Shown one piece after another: positions 1 through 58,768 of a stretch of 64,000 nt of DNA (its first letter is position 1; each line of letters opens with the position of its first letter). Made by a program: the position numbers and the translations under genes. The stretch is from an uncultured virus (IMG/VR IMGVR_UViG_3300020049_015491). Taxonomy: Duplodnaviria > Heunggongvirae > Uroviricota > Caudoviricetes. The stretch lies in IMG/VR virus record IMGVR_UViG_3300020049_015491; one strand, given 5' to 3'. The notes below the pieces were generated by a model. The model worked only from the letters and a program-made list of their open reading frames with translations. It made no database searches and was not told where the DNA came from.

Positions 1-1
1 A

Positions 2-271
2 TTGAACATGGCAAATGTAGCGAAAAAGAAAGAATACAAATTGGCAGCAAAACAAAAAGCTGCAGAGAAACTAGAAGAAGAATACTCAGACACGGTTCGC
101 GATTCTCTGCTTTTCGAGGAAACTGCCAGAGTCAGAGCGGGTTAGACGGTAAAGGCAAAATTTACCACAGCAGTCACATTCATTACAAACAACAATACGT
201 GGCTGAATGACTTGATAAGTCAAATCAAAGCCTGCACGACTTGGAACCAACTTAGTAAGATTTCGATATAG
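2..271 (+). pseudogene. Window-edge ORF interrupted by an in-frame TAG at 143-145; C-terminus resembles phage tail-fibre-assembly (DUF4376-like) ends
   Basis: Manual translation MANVAKKKEY...RVRAG*TVKAKF...LISQIKACTTWNQLSKISI*; the frame stays protein-like after the TAG. Confidence 0.4.
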
Positions 272-274
272 ACT

Positions 275-312
275 GGAAAGCTGGTCTAATCCAGCTTCCG
301 TTCCACTTTTAT
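275..312 (+). terminator. Hairpin plus T-tract after the first ORF
   Basis: GGAAAGCTGG...CCAGCTTCC imperfect inverted repeat followed by CACTTTT. Confidence 0.4.
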
Positions 313-1562
313 GAAGACGGGGTGTAGGGGGCAGAGAAAACCAAGGACTTTAGTCCTTGGATGAATCGTGCCCCACTGTTATGCAAAAACTATAAATACA
401 TTCAACCACATAACAATATCTATGCTAAAAGCGTACAAGTTCAGAATCTATCCAACCAAGTCCCAAAGGACGGCAATGGAGAAGACCCTGGACTTGTGTC
501 GCTGGACCTATAATCAAACATTGGCATATCGAAAGAACGCCTTTGAACAAGAAGGTAAATCCGTTTCGAAGTATGAAACTCACAACCTGCTCCCGGCTTG
601 GAAAGAAGAGAAACCAGAACTCAATGAAGTCTTTTCTCAAGTTCTTCAGAACGTCCAAGAACGGGTAGACCTAGGCTTGAAAGCGTTTTTCCGAAGGGTG
701 AAAGCGGGTGAGAACCCTGGATATCCTAGATTCAGAGGGCGGAACTGGTATGACTCATTCACCTATCCTCAGAAGGGATTCAAACTCGATTCTGGCAAGC
801 TCCATCTCTCCAAGATTGGAGATATCAAGATCAAACTCCATCGCCAAATCGATGGTAATATCAAACGTTTGACCATTCGAAGGGCGGCAACTGGTAAATG
901 GTTTGCTGCTTTCTCAGTTGAACTTGAAGATCAACCTAAGCCACCCTGGAAAGATGGATCTCTGGTAGGGATAGATGTCGGGCTTTCTAGTTTTGCCACT
1001 CTTTCCAATGGTGAAAAGATCGCCAATCCAAGATTCTTCAGAGAAGAAGAACAAGAGCTTGCCAGGGTCCAAAGAAAACTCTCCAAAGCTCCTAAAGGAT
1101 CTCTTGACAGAAGGGTCGCTCTTAAAGTAGTTGCAAGAGTCCATGAACGAATAGCTAACAAGCGATATGAATTTGCTCATCAGGTTAGCCGTGATTTGGT
1201 TGACCGTTTCGGCTTAATAGCATTTGAAGATCTGAATATAACTAATATGCTTCAAAACCACAACTTAGCTAAATCCATCTCGGATGTAGCCTGGAACATG
1301 CTGGTGACTTTAACATCCTACAAAGCTGAAAATGCTGGTTCGATAGTGGTCCTAGTAGACCCAAGGAATACGTCTAAGATGTGCTCAAGGTGTGGTATCA
1401 TAGTTGAAAAAACATTGGCCGACCGTGTCCACAATTGCTCTCAATGCGGGCTATCGCTTGACCGAGACTGGAACGCGGCCATAAACATTCTCCGTCTGGG
1501 ACTACAGACGGTCGGCATTGAAGCCGTAGAAGCCCAGGTGCTTTAGCCCTGGGAGTAGTCAC
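313..1562 (+). mobile_element. IS200/IS605-family element, TnpB-only (IS1341-like)
   Basis: Left-end hairpin CCAAGGAC-TTTA-GTCCTTGG (341-360) preceded by guide AAAA, predicting target TTAT (309-312). Right-end hairpin with guide GAAG ends in TCAC at 1562. Confidence 0.9.
422..1546 (+). CDS. tnpB: TnpB RNA-guided nuclease
   Basis: AYKFRIYP N-terminus, RuvC motifs GIDVG / FEDL / DRDWNAA, CxxC...CxxC zinc ribbon; start moved to ATG 422. Confidence 0.95.
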   Translation: MLKAYKFRIYPTKSQRTAMEKTLDLCRWTYNQTLAYRKNAFEQEGKSVSKYETHNLLPAWKEEKPELNEVFSQVLQNVQERVDLGLKAFFRRVKAGENPGYPRFRGRNWYDSFTYPQKGFKLDSGKLHLSKIGDIKIKLHRQIDGNIKRLTIRRAATGKWFAAFSVELEDQPKPPWKDGSLVGIDVGLSSFATLSNGEKIANPRFFREEEQELARVQRKLSKAPKGSLDRRVALKVVARVHERIANKRYEFAHQVSRDLVDRFGLIAFEDLNITNMLQNHNLAKSISDVAWNMLVTLTSYKAENAGSIVVLVDPRNTSKMCSRCGIIVEKTLADRVHNCSQCGLSLDRDWNAAINILRLGLQTVGIEAVEAQVL

Positions 1563-1571
1563 AGAGCTGCC

Positions 1572-2702
1572 TTAAGGCAACTCTCCCCAGCCTTTTCCCC
1601 ACAGATCGCTCAGCCTGCCGAAATATCGATCATACTTTACAGCACAAACTTCCGTGCTAAATCGACTTACGGCCCATTGCCGACATGTTCTTGGTTTTAT
1701 GCGCTCAATGTTTCGAACTGCATTTACGAACTCCTTAAGCACCATACATCTGAATCCAACATGCTCTGGCACGGTTTCCGTGTAACAGCCAAAGTCCGTG
1801 GTGATCACCGGCGTTCCGCTCATCAGAGCCTCTGCTGTAACCCCCTCGAAGGGGCCTATGTAGAGCGTAGACGAGAAAAGACCTTTAGCTCGTGATAATA
1901 GTTCCAACTTCTCCTTTTCGTCTACATAGCCTATATATTCCACATTAGGCGAAGTCAGCTTTACGTCTTCGCCGGGTTGCCCAGCCAGGATGAGATGGCT
2001 GTTAGTGGCCTCGCAGGCTTGGATTGCAATATCAATGCCCTTCCGATGGGCGATTCTGCAATTCATAAAGAAGAAATCTTCCTTGTCTTCTCTGAACTTA
2101 TAATGCCCAGGATGATAGAAATTGGGAATCACATCATCATAGAAGTCACCATTCACGAATCTCTTACTTTGAGTCCATGCCTTGTAGATCCCATAGACGT
2201 AGTGTCTCCAGGCGTTGGATTCGAAGACCCGATGGGTGTTCATGAGAATGCCATCGTAGCCTATTCCCGATTCCACCAGCCAGGGCCATCCATTGGCCAC
2301 TTCGACGCCCCCCTGGCTGACGGGCTTGCAAATATCCTCATAGTAATTTCCCATAGGATTGCACAGGATATCGTTTTTCCCGACACGACTCCCAATCTCC
2401 CGAATTGCATTTTTTCGAAAAATCGTGTAAGCTGGATCGTTTTTTCCATGTTCAAAAAACTTAGCTGAGAACTTATCCAGTGGGCCATATATCCGATTTC
2501 TCTCTTCCTCGGTTAAGACGACAATATTCTCCTTGCAGGCTATCTTCGAGCCCTCCACCCCGTAGAAATATATGTCGTAGCCGATACCTGTCATCATATC
2601 GCAAAAGCGCTTAATCTTCTGAGAATAAGCACATGCGAACATTGGATCAGCAGCCACGGTTGGCAAATGAGCCAACCCCAGTACATGCAGTTTATTCTTC
2701 AT
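1572..2702 (-). CDS. Glycosyltransferase, GT4/GT-B fold
   Basis: RIAHRKG and FEGVTAEALMSGTPVITTDFG motifs. Confidence 0.85.
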   Translation of the reverse strand: MKNKLHVLGLAHLPTVAADPMFACAYSQKIKRFCDMMTGIGYDIYFYGVEGSKIACKENIVVLTEEERNRIYGPLDKFSAKFFEHGKNDPAYTIFRKNAIREIGSRVGKNDILCNPMGNYYEDICKPVSQGGVEVANGWPWLVESGIGYDGILMNTHRVFESNAWRHYVYGIYKAWTQSKRFVNGDFYDDVIPNFYHPGHYKFREDKEDFFFMNCRIAHRKGIDIAIQACEATNSHLILAGQPGEDVKLTSPNVEYIGYVDEKEKLELLSRAKGLFSSTLYIGPFEGVTAEALMSGTPVITTDFGCYTETVPEHVGFRCMVLKEFVNAVRNIERIKPRTCRQWAVSRFSTEVCAVKYDRYFGRLSDLWGKGWGELP

Positions 2703-3915
2703 CTTAACACCTCAGCAGCGGAGACCCCATCCTTTAGGGTGGGGAGGAGCTGCGTACGATAACTATATATCCTTTGAAGATAATCTTCAATGGAATGCTT
2801 CAAACCTTGATGGTGAAACTCGACCCCTCTCCAGAGCAACATAAGATGCTCTGTGAAACAATGAAGAGGTTTAACGAGGCTTGCAACCACATAGCAGAGA
2901 CGGTTTTCTCTTTGCATAGCGCCAACAAGGTTGAAATCCATAAGACAGTTTACTATCCCGTCAGAGAGCATTTTGGCCTCTCGTCCCAGCTCACTATCAG
3001 AGCCATCTCCAAGGTCTGCGAAGCCTATAAGAGGGACAAGTCCATCAAACCAGAGTTTCGGCTTGATGGCGCCATCGTTTACGATCAAAGAATCCTCTCT
3101 TGGAAGGGACTTGAGAAAGTTTCTCTGGTTACTCTTCAAGGCAGACAAACTATTCCTGTTCGCTTCGGGGAGTATCAAAAGGCTAGATTGGATAGGATCA
3201 GAGGTCAAACCGACCTGATCCTCGTCAAAGGGGTGTTCTACCTCTGCGTTGTAGTTGAAGTTCCTGAAGCATCTCCTTATGATCCCAAAGGAGTTCTTGG
3301 CGTAGATCTCGGTATCAAGAACTTGGCAGTAGACAGCGATGGCGAGGTGCATTCTGGTGAGAAAATCCAGAATGTCAGATCCAAGTCGGATCTTCTTAAG
3401 GCCAAGCTTCAAAGTGTTGGGACCAAATCGGCTAAAAGGCATCTCAAGAAACTGTCTGGCAGAATGGCGAGGCTCGCTAGGGATACTAACCATTGTATCT
3501 CCAAGACTCTGATTATGAAGGCTAAAGACACTCTGTCCTTGATCTCCCTCGAAGATCTTGAGGGTATTCGAAATATGACAGAGAGAACGGTTAAGAAGTC
3601 TCAGAGACATAACCATAGTTCTTGGAGTTTCAACCAGCTTAGAGAGTTCGTGACCTATAAGGCTACCATAGCTGGTGTTCCTTTGGTCTACATCGACCCT
3701 GCATATACCTCTCAGGAATGTCCTATTTGCCATTGTATCTCCAAATCTAACCGTCCTACAAGGGATGAATTTTGTTGTACCTGTTGTGGCTTCTCTGGTC
3801 CAGCAGACAACGTTGCAGCTCTGAATATCAGAGCAAGGGTAGAAGTCAACCTACCCATCGTGGCGCGATTTTTTGCGCAGCCGCAAGCCGCGTCCTTTAG
3901 GGCGCGGTAGTTGAC
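2703..3915 (+). mobile_element. IS200/IS605-family element, TnpB-only
   Basis: Left-end hairpin CCCCATCC-TTTA-GGGTGGGG with guide GAGA predicts target TCAT (2699-2702). Right-end hairpin CCGCGTCC-TTTA-GGGCGCGG with guide CAAG ends in TGAC at 3915. Confidence 0.85.
2795..3910 (+). CDS. tnpB: TnpB (Cas12f-related clade) nuclease
   Basis: GVDLG / LEDL / ADNVAALN RuvC motifs, YTSQECPIC...CTCC zinc ribbon. Confidence 0.92.
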   Translation: MLQTLMVKLDPSPEQHKMLCETMKRFNEACNHIAETVFSLHSANKVEIHKTVYYPVREHFGLSSQLTIRAISKVCEAYKRDKSIKPEFRLDGAIVYDQRILSWKGLEKVSLVTLQGRQTIPVRFGEYQKARLDRIRGQTDLILVKGVFYLCVVVEVPEASPYDPKGVLGVDLGIKNLAVDSDGEVHSGEKIQNVRSKSDLLKAKLQSVGTKSAKRHLKKLSGRMARLARDTNHCISKTLIMKAKDTLSLISLEDLEGIRNMTERTVKKSQRHNHSSWSFNQLREFVTYKATIAGVPLVYIDPAYTSQECPICHCISKSNRPTRDEFCCTCCGFSGPADNVAALNIRARVEVNLPIVARFFAQPQAASFRAR

Positions 3916-3936
3916 GTCCTCTCCAGAACCATCAGA

Positions 3937-5484
3937 TTATTTACCAGCCATCCCTTTTATTCTTGCCGTGTCAATAGATTTTCTTATTCTTGACATGATA
4001 TCTTCCGCCCAGGGCTTAGATGACTGTTGTGTGTCCTTAATTACTTTAATTGGAACTGCAACCTCTTTTCGTCTGCCCTTAACCTGCACTATGGCCAACT
4101 GGGTCCGAAGACGCCCAAAGGGATGGTTGTAATCATCTATTTCATCGGATATCTGAACGTCGTATTTTTCACAATCAATAGCATCTACGACTGCCTTTAC
4201 GCCGATGAAGGACATTTCTGAGAAGTAATCGTCGAATACCACGATTGTGTTCGCATGGCTCATCTCCCTGGCCAGCTCCCAGTCCTTTGCGACGGTTTCA
4301 ACAGCATGGCCGCCATCAATGAAGATCAAATCCATTTTTGGCCAACCATTTTCATTTTGCAGTATTTCAGCCGTGAGATCCGTGGAGTTAGCCGCTATCA
4401 GGTTGATATTGGCAGACGTTTCTTGGTTTAGAGTTTTTTGAACAGCACTTTTCTTGGGAGGCACGAATCCGCCAGTAAACTCTTTATTCCACAGCGCTGA
4501 AGTCCCGGTTTCAAAGAGATCGATACCATGATAGTTGATTAGTCCAGCATGCTTTTCATTAGCCACCTGAATCATGCCGATTGCAGTCTGTCCAAAGGAT
4601 GTCCCGATCTCCATGATATTCCGAATATGCGAATTTCCAGCAATCTGGAACAGCTTTCGATAATGCTGGCCTCGTTGCTTAAGATATCCCTCAACATCCC
4701 AGGGAAGCTTAACGTTCCAGTCTGGTTCCGGTAAGATGTCTCGAATGATTCTGGCCAGGAGTGACTTACTACCCCGAACAAAATTGGCATCTATCTTTTC
4801 GAACATGGGTGAAGCCTTAGCATAGAGGTGAATAATCGCTGTATTTTCCGGAAGCTTCAGATCTGGGTTCTCCTGGTACACTTGAGCTATTTCATTGCCT
4901 CCAAATGGGTTGAACACCTCATGCTCTGGAGCTGTGAAGTAGGCAGGACATGTTTGAGATAGCCCAACTATGCTCAACAATATCGGCCCCGACATCCCCC
5001 AAACCATGTCAGGCATGTTGAACAGGGCATCAGAAAACCGATTCATGAGCTTGATCGTTTCAGCTTCCTTATGCGCCAGTATCACTGCATTATTGAATGG
5101 AAATGCAGTATCATCTGGAGTCTTTACATCCAGAGATGCAACCACTCCCTCGTGACCCTCATACCAGTGAGATATGTCTCTGATGCTGATGGTATCCATA
5201 TCAAGTACAGCACCACCATATTCTTGCAGAATTTTCCACTGCATGAAATCCTTCAGGTGTGCTAGTTTGAAGGGCTCACTCTTATTCTGCAAAGCGGGGA
5301 GCTTCGGATCATCAAAATGTTTCACGGTTACGAACCCTGAAATTTTATCCCAATATGGTCCGGTAGGCTCTTCCATGGTCCAAAAAAACACTTCATCGGA
5401 ATCGTGTGTCATTAAACCAGAGAGCACAGAGATCATATGGAGATAGTGAAAATCAGATGAAGTACTTATGAAATGAAGAATCAT
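3937..5484 (-). CDS. DxD glycosyltransferase (GT32-like) fused to a class I SAM methyltransferase (Methyltransf_24-like)
   Basis: YGGAVLDMDT, NNAVI and GPILL in the N-half; MEIGTSFG, DLIFIDGGH and VFDDY in the C-half. Confidence 0.8.
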   Translation of the reverse strand: MILHFISTSSDFHYLHMISVLSGLMTHDSDEVFFWTMEEPTGPYWDKISGFVTVKHFDDPKLPALQNKSEPFKLAHLKDFMQWKILQEYGGAVLDMDTISIRDISHWYEGHEGVVASLDVKTPDDTAFPFNNAVILAHKEAETIKLMNRFSDALFNMPDMVWGMSGPILLSIVGLSQTCPAYFTAPEHEVFNPFGGNEIAQVYQENPDLKLPENTAIIHLYAKASPMFEKIDANFVRGSKSLLARIIRDILPEPDWNVKLPWDVEGYLKQRGQHYRKLFQIAGNSHIRNIMEIGTSFGQTAIGMIQVANEKHAGLINYHGIDLFETGTSALWNKEFTGGFVPPKKSAVQKTLNQETSANINLIAANSTDLTAEILQNENGWPKMDLIFIDGGHAVETVAKDWELAREMSHANTIVVFDDYFSEMSFIGVKAVVDAIDCEKYDVQISDEIDDYNHPFGRLRTQLAIVQVKGRRKEVAVPIKVIKDTQQSSKPWAEDIMSRIRKSIDTARIKGMAGK

Positions 5485-5525
5485 ATTTACACCTCTCGTT
5501 TTTCGAAAAAAAAAGACTGAGAACC

Positions 5526-5759
5526 CTACTCAGGATTCTCCGGTGATATGTCGCAAATAACAACATCACCCAGCTTAGTAGTTCCCAAAACGTCCTCCAG
5601 GCCATCCTTGTCAGGGCCTTCGACCTTCAGAGTGATTTTGGTATCATCAATCACCGCAGTTGCAGATACGACATAGACCATCTTTTTCTTCCCACTGCTC
5701 AACAACTTGACCGGCTTAGGGCCACTGGTGGTTACAGTCAGTTCGACCGTGGAATCCAC
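5526..5759 (-). CDS. Hypothetical protein
   Basis: Overlaps the end of the upstream gene; T-tract follows the stop. Confidence 0.6.
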   Translation of the reverse strand: MDSTVELTVTTSGPKPVKLLSSGKKKMVYVVSATAVIDDTKITLKVEGPDKDGLEDVLGTTKLGDVVICDISPENPE

Positions 5760-6217
5760 TCCGTCCCGACCTTCTCCACCATTGGGAAGTTGACCACAGC
5801 AGGCATCCAGTCCGGGTCACTGTCTTTCTTGGGTCTCTGTCCTCTGGAGCCTCTGAACATGTGGACTTTGATCTCAATCACTCCTTTCTTTCCGACCTTC
5901 CTCCTGACCCCAGTCTCTCTCAGACGGATATCAATCACGCCGGCATTGGCTGCCTTCAGGGCGGCCTGCCTGGGGGCGTGGCCAGTGTACCGTCCAATAT
6001 CGCAATTATCGACATCCATCAGCATGAATACCCGGAACTTTTTCTCTGGATCGGCTTTGGCCGGCTTCACGGCTTTACCAGCTTTGCCAGCTTTGCCAGG
6101 CTTGGTAGCCTTGGCAGCTCTGGCGGTTGCAGTCGCTTTGACGGGGGGCTTAGAAGCTGTCGGCTTGGCAACAGCTACCTTATCGGTCTTGATGATTTTC
6201 TTTTCAGTTTTTCTCAT
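5738..6217 (-). CDS. MC1-family chromosomal protein with Lys/Ala/Pro-rich N-terminal tail
   Basis: GRYTGHAPRQAALKAAN...IRLRETG...KVHMF...PDWMP...VEK matches the MC1 signature; GGAGG SD before ATG 6217. Confidence 0.88.
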   Translation of the reverse strand: MRKTEKKIIKTDKVAVAKPTASKPPVKATATARAAKATKPGKAGKAGKAVKPAKADPEKKFRVFMLMDVDNCDIGRYTGHAPRQAALKAANAGVIDIRLRETGVRRKVGKKGVIEIKVHMFRGSRGQRPKKDSDPDWMPAVVNFPMVEKVGTEWIPRSN

Positions 6218-6253
6218 GTTAACCTCCTGTGATACTGATAACATTTATTCCGA

Positions 6254-41575: not shown

Positions 41576-44065
41576 TCACCAGGAGAATATCGATTGCTGT
41601 CGAGACTTTTGCATTAAATCCTGTTCACTGATATTAAAACTGGCAAATATCCTAGACAGGGGTGGTAGTAGTTGTTTTTTGACATAATATTCAGTGTCGA
41701 TAGGTATATTGTTCTCCATAGCATATTCTGGGTCTTCTGCGCGAGCGGTCATGAGTTCCTGGCGTGAACCTTTTTTTCGTTGACTTTTGATAATTACAAA
41801 AGGAATTCTGTCACCCAATACGTATTTTTGAACCCCTCGTTTTTTCATCTTTTTGACCAGCTCTGCATGGGGCTGGGCCTGGTCATAATTTTCGGGGTTT
41901 CGAGTCAATGTTCGGGTTAAGATCAGATCTTTGATAGTATCTTCAGATGGTTCTTTTACACTGGTGAGAGCAATTCGAGCATGGTTGAGGGCATCATCCA
42001 CGTTACCCTCGATCAATATTTTTTCCAAGCATGCGGTTAGAGTCCTGGCTGTGAGATTGCACCAATCGCGACGCACTGTTTCAATACCCTTGGCTTTAAT
42101 GACTCCTGTGTCAGCGTTTTCGAATCGGTACATGGCATAATGCTTTTTGGCGATAATTAGGATTCTTCTAGCATATGCTTCGAATACCAGCTCCATTGGA
42201 TCTGGTAGACCCGCCGTGATGGTCTTGGCGATCTGTATTCCGGTCTCCTTGGCTTCCTCAAATGTGAGATGCTTAGAGACTGAGATAAAGACAGAATCCG
42301 TGTCCCCCGCTATTACTTTTAGGGATTTGCCATCTACTGTTCCAATATCCTCTACGATTTTGCAGGTTCTGAGCAGATTCTCTCGGCCATAGCTCGTAAC
42401 TGAGTTGGCGATGATGGGGGAGAAAAGTCTGGCCCTGGTATAGCCTGAGTAGCCGTACATTGAGTTTAACAGGATTTTCATGGCGTATTGCTTGGCATCA
42501 AGGGCGTCGCGCTCTTCGGGGCTTTTAGCCTGTTTCATGGCCTTTTTGGCAGCTATGCGTTCATTAAGAATTTTAGATAGTACTCGAGGGATGATACCTT
42601 TATAAACATGGGGGGAGACGAACCGGCCTCCGCTGGGGGAGGTTATGATTTGACCATCTGGTGGCTCCTCATCTCGTATTTCGGTGGAATAACAGAGATT
42701 ATAGGCCATCATAATGGTTGGATATAGCGATTTGAAGTCAAGGATAAGGACTTCCTCAGTCAATCCGATAACTGGGGGCAGCACTATGGCTCCGGTAATT
42801 GTGTCTTTCTCATCGAAATCATCTTCGTCCAGGGCTTGCTTGACGCCCATCACTCGATGCTCGAGGATAAACTCTCGTGCCAATCGTGCTTCAATCATAT
42901 TCGACTGGCCTCCATTTACCACTACTTGTAGTAAGGCACCGCTGGCTTTAGCTAGAGCTATGTATTTGTCCATGACCTTCAGTTCTTTTATAAGTCGCAT
43001 GACAAGCCACGAGTCGCGTCTGGAGTAAGAAATAAAGCGTTTGATGTCGGGGCCTTCCCAGAGCGCTCTCATTTCATTTGCTTTAACATCCAGCTTTTCA
43101 CTATGCAGGATCTCCTGCGCTACCGTGGCCAGGCGGTAATTTTTCAACCTATATTTGTCGATGGCCTTGACCGCTGGAAGCATGTCGAGAACTATTCTCC
43201 CCTGGATGGTTGCTGAATATTTTCCCAAAAAGCTTTTGCACCACGGAGGCCGGCCATCTCTGGACATGCGAAGCTGGATTTTTAGAGTCTTGGATCTGTC
43301 CACCAGGTAGGGCAAATCGAATCCAACAATGTTATATCCGGATACGATATCCGGATCATATTCTGCAACTATGAAAGACAGTTTTTTCAGCATATCTGTT
43401 TCATTTTTCGCCATAATTACGTCTGGTCGTAGACAACCAATATCCTTGGCCATCATTACCACATCAGTCTGGCCTCGCCAGGCTGGGCTGAAAGACATAC
43501 TGATCAAGATGACTGGATCTTCGTCTGCAGTTGGGAATCGACCATCTTCTTTTGGTAGAGCTTCGATATCCAGTGTCATTATTTTCATGGGGGCATTGGC
43601 TTTTTCGTTAATTCCAATCACATCGGTATGGTTGATATGGGATTCTTTAGGCACTATCACCCATCCTGCGCCAGTGATTCCATGATCTATCATGAATCGG
43701 TCTCGGAATATGATATCGCTTTCGTAGGATACGTATCCATCGTGGTTGCAGAAGTCCTGTAGTATGCGAATATCTTTTGGATTTTTGACATAAACTTTCA
43801 GCATCGGAACCGGCTTGGTCTGATATCCAATTGGTTTGAATCGATTTACTGTCATAATTTCTATTTCGATTCCAATCTTCTTGGTAAGCTCGGTGATATA
43901 GATTTCAGCTTTTTTAAGGTCTTTACTGTAGATATAAAAATAAGATATAAATCCATGCACATATTTAATGCAGGATTTGCCATCCATGGTTATCCCGTAG
44001 AGCGTAACTACGGGAAACCCTTGGTTATCTAAATAATGGCCGGCGTCTATTACTTGGATCTGCAT
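41576..44065 (-). CDS. polB: Family B DNA polymerase
   Basis: DIE, YNIVGFD, YSRRD exonuclease motifs; DFKSLYP, KILLNSMYG, GDTDS, KGIETVRRD. Confidence 0.97.
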   Translation of the reverse strand: MQIQVIDAGHYLDNQGFPVVTLYGITMDGKSCIKYVHGFISYFYIYSKDLKKAEIYITELTKKIGIEIEIMTVNRFKPIGYQTKPVPMLKVYVKNPKDIRILQDFCNHDGYVSYESDIIFRDRFMIDHGITGAGWVIVPKESHINHTDVIGINEKANAPMKIMTLDIEALPKEDGRFPTADEDPVILISMSFSPAWRGQTDVVMMAKDIGCLRPDVIMAKNETDMLKKLSFIVAEYDPDIVSGYNIVGFDLPYLVDRSKTLKIQLRMSRDGRPPWCKSFLGKYSATIQGRIVLDMLPAVKAIDKYRLKNYRLATVAQEILHSEKLDVKANEMRALWEGPDIKRFISYSRRDSWLVMRLIKELKVMDKYIALAKASGALLQVVVNGGQSNMIEARLAREFILEHRVMGVKQALDEDDFDEKDTITGAIVLPPVIGLTEEVLILDFKSLYPTIMMAYNLCYSTEIRDEEPPDGQIITSPSGGRFVSPHVYKGIIPRVLSKILNERIAAKKAMKQAKSPEERDALDAKQYAMKILLNSMYGYSGYTRARLFSPIIANSVTSYGRENLLRTCKIVEDIGTVDGKSLKVIAGDTDSVFISVSKHLTFEEAKETGIQIAKTITAGLPDPMELVFEAYARRILIIAKKHYAMYRFENADTGVIKAKGIETVRRDWCNLTARTLTACLEKILIEGNVDDALNHARIALTSVKEPSEDTIKDLILTRTLTRNPENYDQAQPHAELVKKMKKRGVQKYVLGDRIPFVIIKSQRKKGSRQELMTARAEDPEYAMENNIPIDTEYYVKKQLLPPLSRIFASFNISEQDLMQKSRQQSIFSW

Positions 44066-50800: not shown

Positions 50801-51204
50801 CAGGATTCTTGAGCCAAACGCTTTACGCGACTGGTTGCAGCGCTGGCCTGTGCTTTTACGCCGTCGAGCTGTGCTTTAATTGCAGCCTTCTCGCTTTTGG
50901 GTGCTGCGGCCAACTTTTCGCCCAGTTCCGCTATTTTGCTACCGAGTTGAGAAGCTGTATCTTCGGCAGCTATTCTTTCTGCTTGTTTAGCGGCTGCTAA
51001 TTTTACAGATTCTTGTAGCTCGGATGCTATTGCGGCTGGGGAGTCGATTACTGTTGGAATTCTGGCAGTTTCGCCTACACCGGAGGGGCTAAATGGTACT
51101 TTTAAGGATGAGAGTAACCTCTCATCCCTGGCTATTGAGGAAGATACATTGTCAATACATGCATCCGCCATGCATTTAGTGCTTGGCATTTTAGAATCCT
51201 CCAT
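47896..51204 (-). CDS. Large putative virion/membrane protein with C-terminal PEGA-like domain
   Basis: Coiled N-terminus, hydrophobic segment, S/K linker, IGLT...VEAGVHTVTIKKSGYKSY. Confidence 0.7.
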   Translation of the reverse strand: MEDSKMPSTKCMADACIDNVSSSIARDERLLSSLKVPFSPSGVGETARIPTVIDSPAAIASELQESVKLAAAKQAERIAAEDTASQLGSKIAELGEKLAAAPKSEKAAIKAQLDGVKAQASAATSRVKRLAQESWEAQRAATTRGSQLVDGRTSYDDLMNTLQSTSVREGKEAVDEALAKSDSLKEVLRNTSREEAEAMASQVSEALGSDRTYAQKLMNYHYQGAAQRIDPTTLSKMTKSDQELIAKAKLNQLSPNDYQQLTRILDNSNAYSGVSVGADLGRVKVNSVLDSPMADKAGELKKLLSDQDVKTALRDETFAEETFAKVYDINPDVAAQFQKAAQDNILSDIRASPEYAKMSKKNKEFVDTLYTKRSYTAEDINRLAEIRDTLGLSTFQKLIRGTVTGAGGFLKNAASSPLSAGKSLLKGTFKAWVIANGLMFVYFAAEEGVQTIIQMTGWNTPLDQYMEFMDSQGIPAMERVEEILGPLDWIMENVPFASVLFPAAAGFKWYNDEAMPSILKDKLQKGINGGLWVPGTGCEFGPGCYGSLRPESERPAYWAAHPDTIGFLDGDLVRRIYDMQPDGTVGPNNLIAQGLGITDPAQAVQVGMGHMIAAGNMGAKETLTKEFTNAYDMLVKGGAKSELAQQAYVAALASSGTTSPTAALDPATTYILADGTTVLGSAITNPASVVGQLNPDGSVTPIGVPSTRGTAPIGTLTPDQQAALAVAPTKAEALARYATFGGTQPTDAQAWRSIFVNPDGALDIAKLKSVYPDMTSAEIQSLFPDEAINKAVKADIQSVGGDPAAVAAKLNQYKAEGLINENARVEQYLNPADAAAFNAKQNDPSKFKLSVVGGKATWVDDTGYPHTEEVVKSSKLLNPATGQYDIDQKRTEADGSEYTIDTGKYAAWVNTGGTDLAGFLANPENWIQTWKGSGSSSKSSSSKSSGSSSKKSSGSSYSKTTGQTGIFIDAAGISAEVWENGEKIGLTDVIIDVEAGVHTVTIKKSGYKSYTIPVQVYSGSIARKSVTLYTDTTTQTQAQKFITAIGGENALNPDHIMFAYATLKNNTALAANAKASAVPTISGSWSFTVTDVKALITAYGGA

Positions 51205-54200
51205 TTATTTCTTCTTGAGTTAGTTCACGAATGATATATGGTAAATCGGTTTTAGCGATTTCCTTTCCTCGCATAGTGTTTCCGCTCTTAGTCATGTAAT
51301 ACCCCTCTGGGTTTATTTGGTTCGTGCTAATTGAACCAGCACTTGCAGATCTTGTTTGCGTGGTAGTAGCTTTTGGTTGTTTGGAATAATAGATTTGTAT
51401 TGCTTCTTTTTCGGTGTACTCTTGATATTTGCCATCACTTGTTTTATAGCTCGATAAATCTTCTGCTGTTAAATCTGATCCTCGTTTTGGATACGCATTT
51501 GGCACATTTGACTTTCTGTAGTAAAATGCGTTCGGGTCTATCGTATCTACAAGTTTTCCTCCTGGTTTGGGTGTCACATTGGCAGGACCGTTATCAGTTG
51601 AGCCAAATAATCTATTTGCAGCGATGGTTGCTGCAGATGCTACTACTGCCGGAGCAGCAACTTTTGCGAAGTCACTCAGGGGCTCAAGGGTTAAGGTTGC
51701 AGCTCTGGAGGCAGCCGTCGATGCTGCACCACCTGCAGCAGCTACCCCACCAGAAACAGCGCATTCAATGGGTGCTACATCGTTGAATCTCTTATCGAAT
51801 GCTTTCTGGATGTTTTTCACATCGTCTATGATGTTCTGCTTCTGGGCTATTCCCTTTTTAACCAGGTCGGAGTATTCTGAAGCTGATATCTCTCCAGCGC
51901 GGTAACTATCACCGGCCTTAGCAAGGTTTTCATCGATAACCTTGAACTCATCATTCGCGTTTCTGATGAACTTTCTATCTTTAATTTCGGCCTCGATGAG
52001 AGAACGTTGCCTGGGTGTAAGATCGAGGTTATCCAGGTTGGTTTTCTCGATATCGTCCATGTTATTGGCTACTGCAGACCTGAAATCCCGGTCTTCTATA
52101 TCCTTAAAGGTGTTTTTCCACTCACGCTCAAGATCTGCATTTCCAACTATTTTTTCGGTCACTTTTTCGACTTCGGAAACAGGGGTTACTTCTGCAGATC
52201 TGATATCGGTAACGATATCTGACCTAGTTTCGTCAAGATATTTTGTCAGGTATGGGAGATCGGCATCGCTGAGATTACGAATCTCGACTGCATTATCTGC
52301 TACGAATGCTCGGTATTCTGCAGCCGACATAGCCTGCAAATCCTTCCCGGTCTTTCCGGCAACAGATACTGGTGCCTGCTCAACTACATCTACGTATTTT
52401 CCGACTTGGAATGATTTAGCTTTATCGGCTTCACGGATACTGGTCCATTTGACACCGCTGGGAGATATTAAGTCAATAGCTACGTATTCCTTGGTCATAT
52501 CTTTTCCAAGGCCACCAGATGCAGTTACTCCAGCCCATTCACTTTCGCCCATACTCATGGCATCGACACGGTTAACTGCTACGATTTGGCTGCCATCAGC
52601 ATCTGCGGGTATCCTCATATGAGATGGGACATTGGTTGGCTTTTCCCAGAAATACATGTCTAGTGGAGACCTTACGGCTTCCAGAGCTTCATCTGCATTC
52701 GTAACCAGATCATTTTTACGAATGAAACTGTATTTGCCATCTGCAGATCGAACCACCCAGCCATCCTCATTCTTGAAGGTATGAGAGAATGCCGACCACC
52801 CATCGTCCGTACCTGTAACCATGCCTACTTCTGCGTTTTTCAGGTATGCAGATTCCATGCTAATTTGGGTGGGGTTACGAGTGACGGTTACTAACTGGTC
52901 GGCATACTTGTTTTTACCGAGAGCCAGCTCTGCTACCCCATAATCGGCGTTTTCGACTTTCCACCAGTCAGGCATATCGTTTAGCAGCTTACTGGATGAC
53001 CGGATGGCCTCGATAGACCTATCCCAGAGTTGGGATGTTTGGAGAGTCCAGGTACTTTTAACCCCGTTGAATTTATTAAGCAGGTTAGATATTTGGCTGG
53101 GCTCACCTGCGTAATATCCAATCTCGGCCCTGATTATGTCTTGGGTCTCGGCTGGAGCATTTTTGAAGTCATCCGTGGCAAAGAACTTGGCCATGTTCTC
53201 TTCTGCTTTCACTTGATGGACTACGATCTCTTTCTCAGGTGCAAGACCAGACGACTTGATTTCGGCATCAGACATGTTTGCGATTGCGTCTTTGTTGGAT
53301 CGCATTAGATTTTCGAAATCAGTCTGGTACATCAGGTTCACGGAGGTCTCTCCTCCGGTAGCTGCGTCAAATGCTACCTGTCCTTCTGCAGACATCTGAG
53401 AGCGTAGATATTGAGCCCTAGCGATCTCTTTTTCGGTTAAAGATTCACCGTTCTTGGCTTTTGCCAGTATCTGTAGGTCAGATTCAGATCCAGACACCAG
53501 TTTATTGAAATCATCGGTTTGGGTGAATGCTGTCCAGGCATCTGCAGTTCCTGCAGCTCCACCAGCTCGGGAGGCTACGGCTTCTGTTGCCATCTCATAC
53601 GACTGCTGGAGATTTGGAACATAGGACGAATAGCTCTCTGCCGGCTGAGAATAGGTGGAAAGCTGGGTGGGTGTAGCTGCAGCAGTCGCAGCCGCGTTTT
53701 TAGAAGCTAGGTATGCTGCATATTCTTCTGGAGTCTGCTTTGCATTCGTAAAGGGGTTCAGGATTGTGAAGGTCCCATCGGAATTGCGGAAATAGTAGTA
53801 GCCATCTGGATTCCAAATCGGGGTTTCAGCAGATCCTTTTAGCGTGGTATATGCTTCTTTATTTAGCCAGATACCAGTATCAGTATCGAGATATTCTACT
53901 TTATCTCCCAGAGTCCTGGTTCGGGCATTGCCTACTGAAGCATCTACGCTATATACATAGGCGGGATTATTGGCTGCAATAGCTGCTCTTTCTGCGTCAA
54001 GGTCTGCTTTAGACACCCAACCACCGGCAGAATCTTGGTAAAGGGTATCCAACGCCTTGGTTTCTGAGTTCCAAGTCTGTTTCTTGTAGGTGTTGGTTTC
54101 GCTATCGTATTTGGATCTTCTGGCTTCGATTCTTTCCGTAGCTACCTTTTCGTAATCGGTAGTTGAGTAGATAGTTCCGGTCTCAGGATCTTTCACTTCC

Positions 54201-57200
54201 CAGGTTTTACCACCATCTAAGCTCCTGATCTCAGCGCCCCAGTCGGAATTCGCAGTCCATTTGGAGACATCTTCTGTAGTTCCAGTTCCATATGATGGGG
54301 TATATCCATCTCCACCCCCACCTCCGGATGAGTAACTTCCACTTCCACCACCGCTTCCGCCGGCATCTTCAGCATTGAGGTTGGCATTGATCTCAGCTAG
54401 CTCATCTTCCATCTGTTTTTGCATGTCTTCAACATTTTTGATGGTTTCGTCATAGAGCCCGCTGCCTGGCGTATTTTCAGCTATCTTAGCCATGTCGGCC
54501 AGGGATGTTCCAGGTGCTATTGTTATACCGGCTGCGGCGGCGTCCTCATAGGCTTGCAGAGCTTGGCTAATGGTATCATAGCTCTTTGCATCTTCTGCAG
54601 CTACTCTTACTGTTTTGATTGCTCCGTCAGCATTTGTGTAGGTGACATGGAATTTACTACCATCAGCGGAATCAAGCCGGGTAATGACAGCTTTTCCTGT
54701 TTCATCTACATCCTGCACAGCCAGTATGCCTCTTTCTGCTGGGTTGTAATCATCTGCGACTGTCAGATAGTTATCTTTGCCGTACTTTACATATTTCGTT
54801 CCTGTTGGTCCTTTATAGACCCCGTTTCCTAAATCGGTCAACTGTCCTAGATCAGCACTGGTGAGCGCTTTATACGGCGTGATTCCTTCGGCAGCTTTTG
54901 TAGCCTCTGCAATCATTTCTGGAGTTAACACGGTGGGGGTTGGCCCCTTTGCTATATCTTCAGCAGTTCCAGTCTTTTTGAAATAATCAGCGGCTGCAGC
55001 TAAATCAGATGATGTAGCTTTAACTTCATTTGCTGGGGTTGCTTTGAAGGTTATGGTTTTGGTTGCAGTTGCTGGAGTCTTTTTGGCGGAACCGAGAGCT
55101 TCTGAGAGCTTACTGAAATCGACAGTAGTTGTAGATGCTTTTACCCCAGATATAACTTCTGTGGGGGCTTTGACGGGGGCTGAAACTACTTCTTTTGCAG
55201 TAGATTTTATGGTAGCCGGCGTAATTTCAGTAGCTTTAACGGTGTTTCCTACTACCTCAACTTCTGTTTTACTACCATCAACACCAGCAATGGTGAACAG
55301 TTTTCCGGTAGTGTCTCCCTCTTTTACAACTAATTTTCCTAACACCTCACCATTTCTCATAGCCGTGATGCCACCATCACCCAACTTGGTGAAAGTTAGA
55401 ACTGCTTTAGATTCAGCTACTCCTTTTCCAACTCCCGTAACTACCAATGGGGCTTTTCCAACGGTTAGTATTGGTAATAAAAGAGCGTTTACTGCGGGAT
55501 ATGGCGTGATTGGGTCGATACCTACCTCACGAACCAATTGGCCGAGCTGATTTTTCTCATATTCTTCCATGTCGGCAAAGTTTGTGCTGGATGCAGTGCC
55601 GGCTATGTTTTCTCTGCCGGCCCATTCAAGAGAGCTTTTCAGAATGTCGCCAGGAGCAGTTTTATCGTTTTTCTTTTCTGAGTTGCTCATTTCGTTGGTA
55701 AATTCAGCAAGCTCTGATTCAGTCATTGATTTAAAAACAGCATCCCAGTAGCTGTCACCCATTTTTGATTCGATGACTGGCTGAATAGCTCCATCGGACG
55801 ATGCACCTAATATCAATCGTGGATTGTTCTTGGCAATTTTTTCTAAGGTATCCTTATCTGCGTATTGCATTGTGGTAGTAAATGTCTCGTAGGCAGTTAA
55901 TCCCTGTACGGGTTTTACGTCTTTTACGGTAGCTCCAGGTTTCGACAAGTCGTTGGCTACTTCATTCAATTTCAGAAGTCCTGCCACAGTTGGCTGCAGA
56001 TCATAGCCGTTTTCATATTGCGGTTTTACCAAACCCGTATATACGGATTCACCAGTTTGAACCGCTTTAGATAGTAGGTAGTCAAGAGGATGTTCTGCTG
56101 GATTGGGTGTTGAGTCTTCTATAGCTTGTTTTTGGGCGGCTGTTCGTGGAACTTCAACAAACAATCCAGATTCGACCTTTCGTTCGCCGGGGAGTTGCAG
56201 AGCTGCTTGAACGGTTGTACCGACAAGACTACCAGTTATGTCACCAGATGTTACAGGGGTTACTGATCCCACAGATAATGTATTCATTTGATTCAGCATT
56301 CCCTGGGGAATGGCTGCAATATCTTTGTCCGATACCCCCAATGCTTGCAGCTTTTTGTAGGTCCACTCCGGAACCTGCACAGATGATTTACCGTCTTCAG
56401 TTCTAAGTCCGATGTATGGGGTAGCTTGGAATAATCCGCTATCGGAATCCAGGGTATTGGTTGGATCATCTGCGAGCATTCCAATTTTTACTTTATTGGT
56501 CTTGTCATCGTATTTTATGCCCATCTTACCGCTGTTCAGGCTGTTTGCTATTGTGAGATCCGAATATCCAGTTTCTTTCAACTGGTCATAGATGTCGGTA
56601 TCTACTTTTACAGCTACGCCTGATGATGATTTCACGCTCGTAAATCCGGCTGGTGTAAATGAAATCACCTTGTAAGATTCTGGTAGTGCGGCCTTACCTA
56701 TAGATTTTCCAAGAGTTCCTAACGTGGCAGCCAAGCTACTAAGCGTTGATTTTTCAGTTGCTGTGGAAGTGGGTGATACCATTTCCCCTGCTGGTATTGC
56801 TGATGGAATAGATGATGGTGCGGCACTGGTTGGAGCAAAGCCGGTTACAAATGGCAAATCTGATGCCAATAAATCTTTGCCCAGGTATATGTTGCCACTT
56901 TTAGTGGTATATTGTTTATTGGGGTCGATATCTTTTAACGATGTTGGTTTCTTGAAAACTGGTGTGCTGGTAGCCGTAGTCTTTTTTGAACTAGCTGATG
57001 AACCGGATGAAGTTGCTGCTGATTGGGCCAATGCCGGTTGAGAGATAGTTATCTTGTCATCGGATTTAACTACAGTTTTTTTACCAGATGAGTCAACTGA
57101 AACCATCTTATTTCTATCAGCAGCCTGTGTAGTAGACGTTTGAGAGGTTATTGCTTTTTGAACTGGAGTTTTATCTTTTATTGTAGGAGTAGATAACGGT

Positions 57201-58768
57201 TGTGGATTCGCACGGTTAGATGCATCTACTTCTGCCTGTAAATCTCGGCTGTGTCCGGTGGTTTCCGTAACCTGCTGCACTACCAGTTTCGTAGAGAGCT
57301 GGTTGATGGCGTCTTGAGCTTTGGCGGTGTTCATCGTGCCATCTGAATTGGCATACTGCTTTAATTGTTTCAATATGGTAGCATATCTTTCAGCCCAGAC
57401 CTCGGTTTTGACAGGTTCATCTCCATAAATTTCCGTGTATGCTAGTTTGGCTAACTCGTCTACTTTTGCCTTTGGATTTATGGTAAGCGTTTTGATTACA
57501 TTGGTTGGAGATGTCTTCCATCCGAGCATTGCTTTCTCACCCAGGCCAGTTTGCGCCTTTGTAGCAGCTTTTGTCATGCCAGTTGAGAATATCATCTTGA
57601 TGTCTGTCTGCTTTGCAACAGCAGTGGATGTGCTATTCTTTACAAGATTCTGAATAGCGTCAACCAGTGCGGAATGATCACCATCCAATGTTGATTCTGA
57701 TGCCTTTTTAAATTCGATCACACGATCTATGGCGGCATTGGCGGCAGTGCTAACGTCCTGCATGGCTGCTTCAGATTTAGCACTTTTAATTCCAGATGCT
57801 GCAAATTTGGCAATCGTGTTCATAGCTGATGCGAAGTCTGCGTTATTTTGTTTCTTCGCAGTGGTTGTTTTTACGGTCACAGTATCTACGGCAGCCTTTG
57901 CAATTGATGACAGGGTAGATAACTGGGGCTGCAGCAGAGCATTAAAAGATTCAATTGGTTTGGCGTTCGATATGGCTTTCTGCAGAGCCGTTTGAATCTT
58001 TTCGGTCATATCAGTTTTTTGAATCTGACTGATATTGAAATTCCATACATCGTCTGTCCTTTTTGCGACTGCTGCAGATGCTTTATTTGCAGTAGATAGG
58101 ATATCATTTACTGCATTTTGGACATCTGCTGCTAGTTTGGGTGCGATTAGAGCCGGTGAATTCAACAGGCTATTGCTGGCCGTTGGAACATTGTTCGTAG
58201 CCTGCCCGACAGTGATAGCTTTGATTGCAGATGCCAGGCTTTCGCTTACGGCAGCCTGAACACTGGGGGAGACCTGGACTGCAGTAGCTGGTTTTGGAGC
58301 TACTGTCGCAAATTCAATGGTCTTTGTTACTGGCTGAGGTTCATTGGTCGCCAGTTTGGATGCAGCGGCTACTAACGCCGCAGATGGAGTAAGAGCGGAA
58401 GGTTTGACTTCAATACTTTGAATCGCAGATGCCAGACTTTCGCTCACTGCAGATTTAGTGCTTGCTGATATAGATGGGGTAGATAAGGGTTCTGCGGTCT
58501 TAAATTCAATAGTTTTAGTTGGTACTGGTTGAGCTGTTTTTGATGATTGGGTGAGCTTTTCAGCAGCCGCTACCAGTGCTGCGGATGGTGTTGGGGTAGT
58601 AGTTGTTTTGAACGTAATGGTTTTAGTAACTACTGGGGTGGTTGCTGGGCGAGACACTGAGGACCCGGACGATGAGGACTTTGTAGACGAGCTAGATGAT
58701 GAGCTTTTAAATGTGATAGTTTTCGTGGGAGTTCTCGCCGGGGTTTTATTCAATGTAAATGATACCAT
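51191..58768 (-). CDS. Giant 2525-aa Ala/Thr/Ser-rich putative virion protein with internal repeats
   Basis: Uninterrupted ORF; repeated TKTIxF and I[DN]PxxxYxxKS modules. Confidence 0.75.
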   Translation of the reverse strand: MVSFTLNKTPARTPTKTITFKSSSSSSSTKSSSSGSSVSRPATTPVVTKTITFKTTTTPTPSAALVAAAEKLTQSSKTAQPVPTKTIEFKTAEPLSTPSISASTKSAVSESLASAIQSIEVKPSALTPSAALVAAASKLATNEPQPVTKTIEFATVAPKPATAVQVSPSVQAAVSESLASAIKAITVGQATNNVPTASNSLLNSPALIAPKLAADVQNAVNDILSTANKASAAVAKRTDDVWNFNISQIQKTDMTEKIQTALQKAISNAKPIESFNALLQPQLSTLSSIAKAAVDTVTVKTTTAKKQNNADFASAMNTIAKFAASGIKSAKSEAAMQDVSTAANAAIDRVIEFKKASESTLDGDHSALVDAIQNLVKNSTSTAVAKQTDIKMIFSTGMTKAATKAQTGLGEKAMLGWKTSPTNVIKTLTINPKAKVDELAKLAYTEIYGDEPVKTEVWAERYATILKQLKQYANSDGTMNTAKAQDAINQLSTKLVVQQVTETTGHSRDLQAEVDASNRANPQPLSTPTIKDKTPVQKAITSQTSTTQAADRNKMVSVDSSGKKTVVKSDDKITISQPALAQSAATSSGSSASSKKTTATSTPVFKKPTSLKDIDPNKQYTTKSGNIYLGKDLLASDLPFVTGFAPTSAAPSSIPSAIPAGEMVSPTSTATEKSTLSSLAATLGTLGKSIGKAALPESYKVISFTPAGFTSVKSSSGVAVKVDTDIYDQLKETGYSDLTIANSLNSGKMGIKYDDKTNKVKIGMLADDPTNTLDSDSGLFQATPYIGLRTEDGKSSVQVPEWTYKKLQALGVSDKDIAAIPQGMLNQMNTLSVGSVTPVTSGDITGSLVGTTVQAALQLPGERKVESGLFVEVPRTAAQKQAIEDSTPNPAEHPLDYLLSKAVQTGESVYTGLVKPQYENGYDLQPTVAGLLKLNEVANDLSKPGATVKDVKPVQGLTAYETFTTTMQYADKDTLEKIAKNNPRLILGASSDGAIQPVIESKMGDSYWDAVFKSMTESELAEFTNEMSNSEKKNDKTAPGDILKSSLEWAGRENIAGTASSTNFADMEEYEKNQLGQLVREVGIDPITPYPAVNALLLPILTVGKAPLVVTGVGKGVAESKAVLTFTKLGDGGITAMRNGEVLGKLVVKEGDTTGKLFTIAGVDGSKTEVEVVGNTVKATEITPATIKSTAKEVVSAPVKAPTEVISGVKASTTTVDFSKLSEALGSAKKTPATATKTITFKATPANEVKATSSDLAAAADYFKKTGTAEDIAKGPTPTVLTPEMIAEATKAAEGITPYKALTSADLGQLTDLGNGVYKGPTGTKYVKYGKDNYLTVADDYNPAERGILAVQDVDETGKAVITRLDSADGSKFHVTYTNADGAIKTVRVAAEDAKSYDTISQALQAYEDAAAAGITIAPGTSLADMAKIAENTPGSGLYDETIKNVEDMQKQMEDELAEINANLNAEDAGGSGGGSGSYSSGGGGGDGYTPSYGTGTTEDVSKWTANSDWGAEIRSLDGGKTWEVKDPETGTIYSTTDYEKVATERIEARRSKYDSETNTYKKQTWNSETKALDTLYQDSAGGWVSKADLDAERAAIAANNPAYVYSVDASVGNARTRTLGDKVEYLDTDTGIWLNKEAYTTLKGSAETPIWNPDGYYYFRNSDGTFTILNPFTNAKQTPEEYAAYLASKNAAATAAATPTQLSTYSQPAESYSSYVPNLQQSYEMATEAVASRAGGAAGTADAWTAFTQTDDFNKLVSGSESDLQILAKAKNGESLTEKEIARAQYLRSQMSAEGQVAFDAATGGETSVNLMYQTDFENLMRSNKDAIANMSDAEIKSSGLAPEKEIVVHQVKAEENMAKFFATDDFKNAPAETQDIIRAEIGYYAGEPSQISNLLNKFNGVKSTWTLQTSQLWDRSIEAIRSSSKLLNDMPDWWKVENADYGVAELALGKNKYADQLVTVTRNPTQISMESAYLKNAEVGMVTGTDDGWSAFSHTFKNEDGWVVRSADGKYSFIRKNDLVTNADEALEAVRSPLDMYFWEKPTNVPSHMRIPADADGSQIVAVNRVDAMSMGESEWAGVTASGGLGKDMTKEYVAIDLISPSGVKWTSIREADKAKSFQVGKYVDVVEQAPVSVAGKTGKDLQAMSAAEYRAFVADNAVEIRNLSDADLPYLTKYLDETRSDIVTDIRSAEVTPVSEVEKVTEKIVGNADLEREWKNTFKDIEDRDFRSAVANNMDDIEKTNLDNLDLTPRQRSLIEAEIKDRKFIRNANDEFKVIDENLAKAGDSYRAGEISASEYSDLVKKGIAQKQNIIDDVKNIQKAFDKRFNDVAPIECAVSGGVAAAGGAASTAASRAATLTLEPLSDFAKVAAPAVVASAATIAANRLFGSTDNGPANVTPKPGGKLVDTIDPNAFYYRKSNVPNAYPKRGSDLTAEDLSSYKTSDGKYQEYTEKEAIQIYYSKQPKATTTQTRSASAGSISTNQINPEGYYMTKSGNTMRGKEIAKTDLPYIIRELTQEEINGGF

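Follow-up and report, generated by a model that had tools for sequence, protein, structure and literature searches.

A TnpB insertion sequence at a start codon carries an outward Shine-Dalgarno motif and a stop-free antisense frame and may act as a translational bridge

Introduction

Among TnpB transposons, IStrons, which are IS605/IS607 elements with a group I intron, limit the harm done to the gene that they interrupt, and work on IS608 established that a 4-nt guide pairs base by base with the cleavage site. The closest precedent in working for the locus described here, going by its published passages, is IS900 with its hed frame (IS110 family, Mycobacterium avium subsp. paratuberculosis), with which work by Doran from 1997 is reportedly linked. 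In the portions of PMC8141618 that deal with IS900, its target CATG-N6-TCTCCTT is a start codon and ribosome-binding site (RBS) on the other strand, and hed is an ORF opposite the transposase that spans the element, lacks an RBS or start of its own and relies on the RBS of the host.

Within the IS200/IS605 family, the closest relatives in the passages of two papers are IS605B-1_MA and ISC1-1_MA, which target N|ATGA (PMC4810608), and the IscB element ISGst, with TAM TTCAT (10.1101/2023.03.14.532601). TCAT-type targets are already known from both sources, and guide-TAM pairing is described in the second. The element reported here shares with these relatives its hairpin ends, 4-nt DNA guides and insertion 3' of TCAT without duplication, and as in the elements of both papers, tnpB and iscB occur in opposite orientations on shared ends. 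In contrast to what is found here, the same passages contain no link between target and start codon, no outward Shine-Dalgarno (SD) motif and no antisense open frame, and the term 'start codon' has 0 occurrences in the running text of PMC4810608, figures apart. Across the literature covered, i.e., the main text of papers outside subscription, no report of an outward SD or an antisense open frame in IS200/IS605 was found. What is new here is a tnpB whose back strand is kept stop-free as far as the TGA within the target ATGA, where it ends.

As in IS900, the insertion falls between RBS and start codon, and an antisense ORF spans the element (383 of 404 codons open); unlike IS900, the transposase family is a different one (Pfam matched only TnpB domains and no DEDD/IS110 transposase), a 4-5-nt target is read, the SD lies on the element itself, and the frame stops on the host ATGA. 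Unlike an IStron, the element has no intron: tnpB fills it, beginning 92 nt after the cut with no group I intron at the left end, and an Rfam search of window positions 1-6000 (E<=1) returned no intron family but only a weak HEARO match, so that any repair would act at translation and not at splicing. As in the ATGA gene pairs treated in passages of PMC6728339, stop and start overlap and an SD lies within the 3' end of the upstream ORF, whereas here the upstream ORF is mobile, unconstrained in sequence and opposite to tnpB, and its stop is supplied by the host target. From these sequence features we favor the reading that the element probably works as a translational bridge using termination-reinitiation.

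Results

An IS1341-type element at the start codon of a glycosyltransferase gene

The window (the whole stretch of 64,000 nt that was analyzed) appears to come from an archaeal virus or mobile element of large size, judging by Pfam matches to an MC1 chromatin protein, a family B polymerase and PEGA proteins, and the carrier of the element is probably a virus of a methane-producing archaeon; the host group was deduced from the relatives of the window's IS elements, which are mostly in Methanothrix/Methanotrichaceae records. The MC1 protein (5738-6244) has an N-terminal extension rich in lysine and alanine, the polymerase is at 41576-44065, and a 2,525-aa ORF at 51191-58768 has no Pfam match. 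Four TnpB elements are present in the window, two of them with a Y1 tnpA (Pfam).

The element studied here occupies 2703..3915 on the plus strand (1,213 bp). It has subterminal hairpins at both ends without terminal inverted repeats, it lies 3' of its target without duplication and leaves a scarless empty site, and it carries tnpB without a tnpA of its own, the two Y1 tnpA genes elsewhere in the window being potential sources of TnpA in trans; it is thus an ordinary IS200/IS605 member of the IS1341 type (solo TnpB). Its target and predicted TAM, TTCAT (2698..2702, plus strand), reads ATGAA on the minus strand, where the host ATG (2702-2700) overlaps a TGA (2701-2699). TCAT itself (2699-2702) is followed by the leader CTTAACACCTC (2703-2713) and by a left-end structure at 2715..2753, defined by the DNA fold and by guide-target covariation and consisting of an outer stem (2715-2719/2749-2753), the guide GAGA (2721-2724) and a hairpin (2725-2744). 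A TATA-like box (2764..2771), with similar boxes in relatives, is by its sequence most likely the tnpB promoter. The tnpB gene (2795..3910, plus strand) encodes 371 aa with the RuvC-type motifs GVDLG, LEDLE and ADNVAA and two CxxC motifs; its Pfam domains are OrfB_IS605 and Cas12f1-like_TNB, with no HTH domain match. The catalytic motifs of this TnpB are present, and its TAM is predicted to be TTCAT. The right end (3884..3915) comprises the guide CAAG (3884-3887), a hairpin and the cleavage site TGAC (3912-3915), and an omega-RNA region is predicted at about 3765-3915 (weak HEARO match, E 0.71, far under the gathering score).

The interrupted gene encodes a GT1 glycosyltransferase of 376 aa (1572..2702, minus strand; PF00534), whose start codon is the insertion target. 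Met1 at 2702 is its true N-terminus, as the homologs P0001 (99%) and P0002 (94%) begin at the same residue; a viral_contigs search found no relative of the gene. The co-directional upstream gene (3937..5484, minus strand; methyltransferase/DXD domains, Pfam), whose stop lies 21 nt from the IS right end, is a probable operon partner.

In the four runs compared, from four studies, 2702 is joined unambiguously to 3916 with exactly 1,213 nt skipped, and the empty allele reads native GGAGAGGAC-ATG. These junctions come from run contigs, the exact empty junction not being found in the viral_contigs search. The run shares of 0.57-0.67 in 18 runs, 4 of which were compared by contig alignment, are consistent with absence of the IS; the inserted allele was found in none of these 4 runs, which counts against the bridge reading. 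In the window, the displaced native SD GGAGAGGAC lies just beyond the right end (3916..3924, minus strand), and its plus strand is the start of the predicted omega-RNA guide (3916-3935). This guide runs antisense to the part of the glycosyltransferase mRNA that contains the native SD. That this guide could pair with transcripts of the empty allele is a speculation.

The outward Shine-Dalgarno motif is borne by the element

Across the junction, the minus strand reads GAGGTG-TTAAG-ATG, i.e., an SD (2708..2713) that is unpaired in the left-end DNA fold and separated from the host ATG by a 5-nt spacer (2707-2703). Its duplex with the anti-SD GATCACCTCC, which was found in 5/5 Methanotrichaceae-group genomes searched, has an energy of -9.5 kcal/mol, attained at 1-1.5% of random positions. 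The same calculation gives -9.7 for the gene at 5484, and the native GGAGAGGAC that the insertion displaced comes to -6.4. The leader is IS-borne, because at 6 other sites the identical 11 nt adjoin flanks that are unrelated; 4 further close variants were also found. The alternative of a native SD, with the IS beginning further in, is rejected by this recurrence together with the empty-allele joint. The original prediction, made from the window alone, had placed a consensus SD at native spacing in the left end, a displaced native SD at 3916-3924 that an empty allele would rejoin to ATG, and the same leader at the left end of other copies, and all of this is borne out.

The target is start-like and gene starts are enriched among insertion sites

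The guide rule, said in the prediction to fit all eight IS ends of the window, does fit 8/8 ends of its four elements, including the guide GAGA that specifies TCAT at the glycosyltransferase ATGA. Over 181 resolved sites, GAGA corresponds to TCAT in 109/112, GAAA to TCAT in 24/27, GAGT to TCAA in 14/14 and GAGG/GAAG to TCAC in 26/26 cases, counts that are partly circular as the script looked for the predicted 4-mer (3/184 sites unresolved). Two corrections apply to the TCAT rule: the preferred target is the 5-nt TTCAT, position -5 being T in 98/134 unique TCAT sites (155 sites less 19 with short flanks and 2 merged), and GAGA-guide elements are occasionally found at TCAC (2/112 resolved sites). 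With the target TTCAT, the element therefore always lands just 5' of an opposite-strand ATGA, which is often a host start codon.

Gene starts account for 23/58 TCAT sites with both flanks (window excluded; L050 and L078 are a single locus counted twice), compared with 5.2-6.1% of background ATGA/ATGAA sites, to which an identical criterion was applied (400 kb of G057, the window and the insertion flanks). This enrichment of about 7-fold upholds the predicted bias toward ATGA starts. An independent classifier gave 9/32 starts (window included) versus 22/400 in the background, and 6/32 intragenic sites versus 283/400; several insertions, for example L083, L162 and L160, are at clear N-termini (Pfam).

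Survival of insertions that are not disruptive can account for much of the enrichment. This is the starting point of an alternative that we consider unlikely, namely that an open antisense frame shields any host transcript crossing the element from termination or decay, that the start enrichment is a survivor effect of a start-like TAM, and that the SD is secondary or minor. It accounts for the depletion of intragenic sites, and passages of PMC11616081 offer, as a hypothesis only, a monitoring of uncoupled transcription and RNA by FttA; against it, starts exceed their share of the non-intragenic background (23/58 versus 22/117, p 2e-4, the two classifiers being different).

It also agrees with the finding that the share of start sites is not raised by the SD, either over all sites (15/44 SD-bearing versus 32/89 SD-less), in the both-flank set (8/26 versus 15/32) or by the independent classifier (3/12 versus 6/20). 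The idea that the SD increases start-site insertion, examined in these three ways, is unsupported, and the equal occurrence of SD-bearing and SD-less elements at starts is counted against the bridge reading. Among the other sites of the present leader type, 1-3/10 are starts, L026, L119 and L156 being the only possible ones and L026 being classified as a start in one scheme and not in the other.

The SD is associated with the target within one left-end scaffold

Leaders and targets were sampled for one left-end scaffold from 392 Methanosarcinia-class genomes plus viral contigs, leaving out 16 unresolved matches and the doubtful L307 and L309. An outward SD (-5.5 or better) is present in 20/26 distinct TCAT leaders and in 2/3 TCAC leaders, versus 0/46 leaders with TTAT, TTAC, TTAG, TGAC, TGAT or TCAA, the leaders with non-TCAT targets being shorter; in 500 shuffles of the leaders, a mean of 2.1 and a maximum of 7 had an SD. 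This target specificity within a scaffold also argues against general read-through tolerance. Outside the scaffold, the SD is absent from the two commonest TCAT leaders, and one TCAA leader has an anti-SD score of -8.3.

A quick TnpB tree (83 rows, several long-branch and probably mis-extracted ORFs being retained) places the SD-bearing elements in one clade plus one end swap (L016, in which this leader type is joined to tnpB of another clade, i.e., end/gene swapping), with two TCAA members without SD nested inside the clade. The link between SD and target is not significant in an independent-pairs test on this tree (median p 0.5), so that the association is weakened by kinship, and this too is counted against the bridge reading. 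Native SDs were replaced by 6/8 SD-bearing elements versus 5/15 without SD (p 0.09), which is only suggestive of more frequent displacement.

The single clade is equally what would be expected if the SD had been captured neutrally, a quite unlikely account in which the ancestor targeted TCAC with an end starting CTC inside a native SD, and a guide change from GAGG to GAGA shifted the cut outwards, so that native spacer and SD were captured and merely inherited. The leader of L119 does include TCAC|CTC, GAGG/TCAC elements with CTC starts occur in the same TnpB clade, and flexible spacing with capture is reported in passages of 10.1101/2023.03.14.532601. However, the TCAT leaders have fully diverged, unrelated spacers and keep the anti-SD match in shifting registers, and capture leaves the frame-specific avoidance of stops described below unexplained; it can moreover be the origin of the motif and selection its maintenance.

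Seen against these results, the predicted adaptation of the IS to ATGA starts, with repair of initiation, holds in part: start enrichment and the scaffold-wide association of SD and target speak for it, whereas the SD-independent start share, the independent-pairs test, the SD-less commonest TCAT leaders and the few starts among other sites of this leader type do not.

Stop codons are avoided on the strand opposite tnpB

An antisense ORF of 344 aa runs from an ATG at 3733 to the TGA of the target ATGA (2699..3733, minus strand), in exact antisense register to tnpB and without Pfam match, and its frame is open for 383 codons from 3850. A GGAG SD-like motif (3739..3742, minus strand; -6.4 kcal/mol) lies 5 nt before the antisense ATG; this pair may be a by-product of tnpB codons or of a conserved His motif, the latter being counted against the bridge reading.

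For this frame to be open, tnpB must avoid TTA, CTA and TCA. Antisense stops occur at 1/58 Leu/TCN codons of the gene versus 39/175 in the three further tnpBs that the window carries (p 8e-5). At matched GC, the usage of TTA/CTA/TCA is 0.010/0.007/0.016 in 24 TCAT genes versus 0.069/0.143/0.185 in 12 TT/TG genes, i.e., 7-20-fold lower, while other A-ending codons shift less than 2-fold and out-of-frame counts are unchanged. Avoidance of a motif at the DNA level and general avoidance of A-ending codons or of TA are rejected by this frame-specific comparison. The frame stays open despite synonymous divergence (dS up to 1.9), antisense dN/dS is 1.2-1.9, no different from that of closed tnpBs, and there is no reduction of sense dN/dS. 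The antisense peptide sequence is unconstrained; the absence of antisense stops is under selection.

Across 74 distinct tnpBs, antisense frames of at least 280 codons are present in 24/28 TCAT, 9/16 TCAC, 2/5 TCAA, 1/1 GGAT and 1/24 TT/TG genes. The open frames of TCAC and TCAA relatives, which are counted against the bridge reading, and those of SD-less TCAT clades are in line with read-through tolerance, as are the 18 of 37 open frames that stop away from the target TGA, the other 19 ending on it. Elements with TT/TG targets face the same read-through problem, yet their frames are closed, which argues against that alternative. The present leader type has an open frame at 10/11 sites, extending either through all of the sequence available or over 288 codons or more as far as the target TGA; family-wide, the frame reaches the target stop in 14/35 cases, not significantly above the 11/45 of TT/TG controls (p 0.15), which again counts against the bridge. 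Among 6 of the 25 cultured plasmid relatives listed, four TCAC elements are closed (46-56%) and one GC-rich TCAC element is open but uninformative; a distant cultured TCAT element (Rhodothermus, 38.5%) has an open frame. Given the four closed relatives, the idea that all of the TnpB subfamily shares an open frame is rejected.

Near the right end, an SD-led ATG is found in the antisense register of 22/27 TCAT tnpBs, versus 2 and 0 in the other frames. Together with the 344-aa ORF and its own SD-led ATG, this speaks for a functional antisense protein, which we treat jointly with a requirement of the leader motif for the TnpA end structure as a very improbable explanation. The protein is contradicted by the dN/dS values and the missing Pfam match. 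The leader could serve the end structure through CCTC, which is complementary to GGAGG after the hairpin, but it is predicted to be unpaired, the motif is missing from TCAA elements that share this GGAGGA (0/4), and the AGGTGA and GGTG registers are unable to pair with GGAGGAG.

In five relatives (L002, L027, L171, L351, L352), the right-end region repeats one left-end leader motif, CAT followed by CTTAACCTC, and this repeat forms the SD-led ATG that opens the antisense frame. Inside the IS, the host strand contains no T-run longer than 4 nt, which is weakly compatible with read-through. An outward promoter is not claimed, the sigma-70-type scan match at 2790-2762 overlapping the tnpB TATA box and the scan being unsuited to archaea.

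A possible route across the element

The SD appears to belong to a larger device, a stop-free antisense frame ending on an ATGA overlap. Building on the observed target, ends, IS-borne and target-linked SD, start enrichment, lack of antisense stops and, in this lineage, ATGA overlap, we envisage that the element, with its SD and its stop-free back strand, is probably crossed by ribosomes, so that the host protein would still be made. On the host strand, the element reads as a dummy cistron: opposite tnpB there is a stop-free frame of 340-400 codons, whose stop in this lineage is the TGA of the target ATGA, with the SD before it at 5-nt spacing. A host transcript from the upstream gene would read through the element, ribosomes would translate the dummy frame until they terminate at the ATGA overlap, and reinitiation on the host gene would be helped by the IS-borne SD; the 1.2 kb of foreign RNA would stay covered by ribosomes and polarity would be limited, the antisense peptide itself probably being irrelevant. 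TnpB, with its predicted TAM TTCAT, would cut the empty allele and so keep the insertion in place.

Tight coupling of translation at ATGA overlaps, and a variable contribution of internal SDs to reinitiation, are described for Haloferax and E. coli in the passages of PMC6728339 on such gene pairs. The same passages describe the SD as not essential for reinitiation and transcripts with long untranslated parts as stable in H. volcanii, both of which are counted against the bridge reading. Tentatively, the proposal may extend to a widespread TnpB/IscB clade in which the target (host-strand ATGA), the outward SD and synonymous tnpB codons have co-evolved, so that the whole element would serve as a portable upstream cistron from which ribosomes pass to the interrupted gene.

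If true, IS200/IS605 elements would have a third way to avoid harm in addition to IStron splicing and the avoidance of genes, and it would be concealed in the codon choice of a gene that has been studied intensively for genome editing. It would explain the start-codon-like target choice of some IS200/IS605 elements and their persistence at operon junctions without splicing. Codon usage in tnpB and the C-terminal tails of iscB would then be under a constraint that is hidden. Methanogenic archaea and their viruses would provide a naturally occurring, testable example of translational coupling that is portable, and non-polar insertion cassettes could be designed on this principle.

IscB-bearing, gene-less and minimal relatives

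Many elements with these ends have a minus-strand gene in place of tnpB. Among 15 minus-strand ORFs scanned (Pfam), chosen by eye from 37 candidates, 14 are IscB, and 12/14 of these genes stop -4 to +8 nt from the cut, in a set that held no recognized non-TCAT IscB as control. The real gene of these relatives is thus directed into the host start codon and would give them the geometry of the bridge.

Where a right end was found, about half of the SD-bearing sites are short or gene-less, with 12/27 under 500 nt, which is counted against the bridge reading. Seven elements (L019, L027, L154, L160, L066, L070, L213) are gene-less, 360-420 nt long and have both ends; several are at operon junctions, and their 300-400-nt interior may be an RNA. 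Six others (L301, L311, L319, L299, L322, L312) are minimal elements of 58-60 nt with a TCAT target and an outward SD, in which a single hairpin apparently serves both ends (the cut plus about 60 nt); the one in L319 is located before a 596-codon ORF.

Three elements (L155, L228, L231) are inserted right at the right-end cleavage site of another IS200/IS605 element, giving tandems. Related elements are also present in G038, G057 and G098. Elements with a TCAC target are found at probable GTG starts in L009, L276 and L377; L276 combines an SD leader with an antisense frame whose stop lies directly at the junction, and L377 adjoins an annotated GTG start. Finally, another element of the window, IS-A (313-1562), is missing from the 4/4 runs compared, which have 144 other letters between 312 and 1563; loose contig ends with other IS-type hairpins occur near 251-255, as if this intergenic position were a hotspot of insertion or a mini-element had been replaced here.
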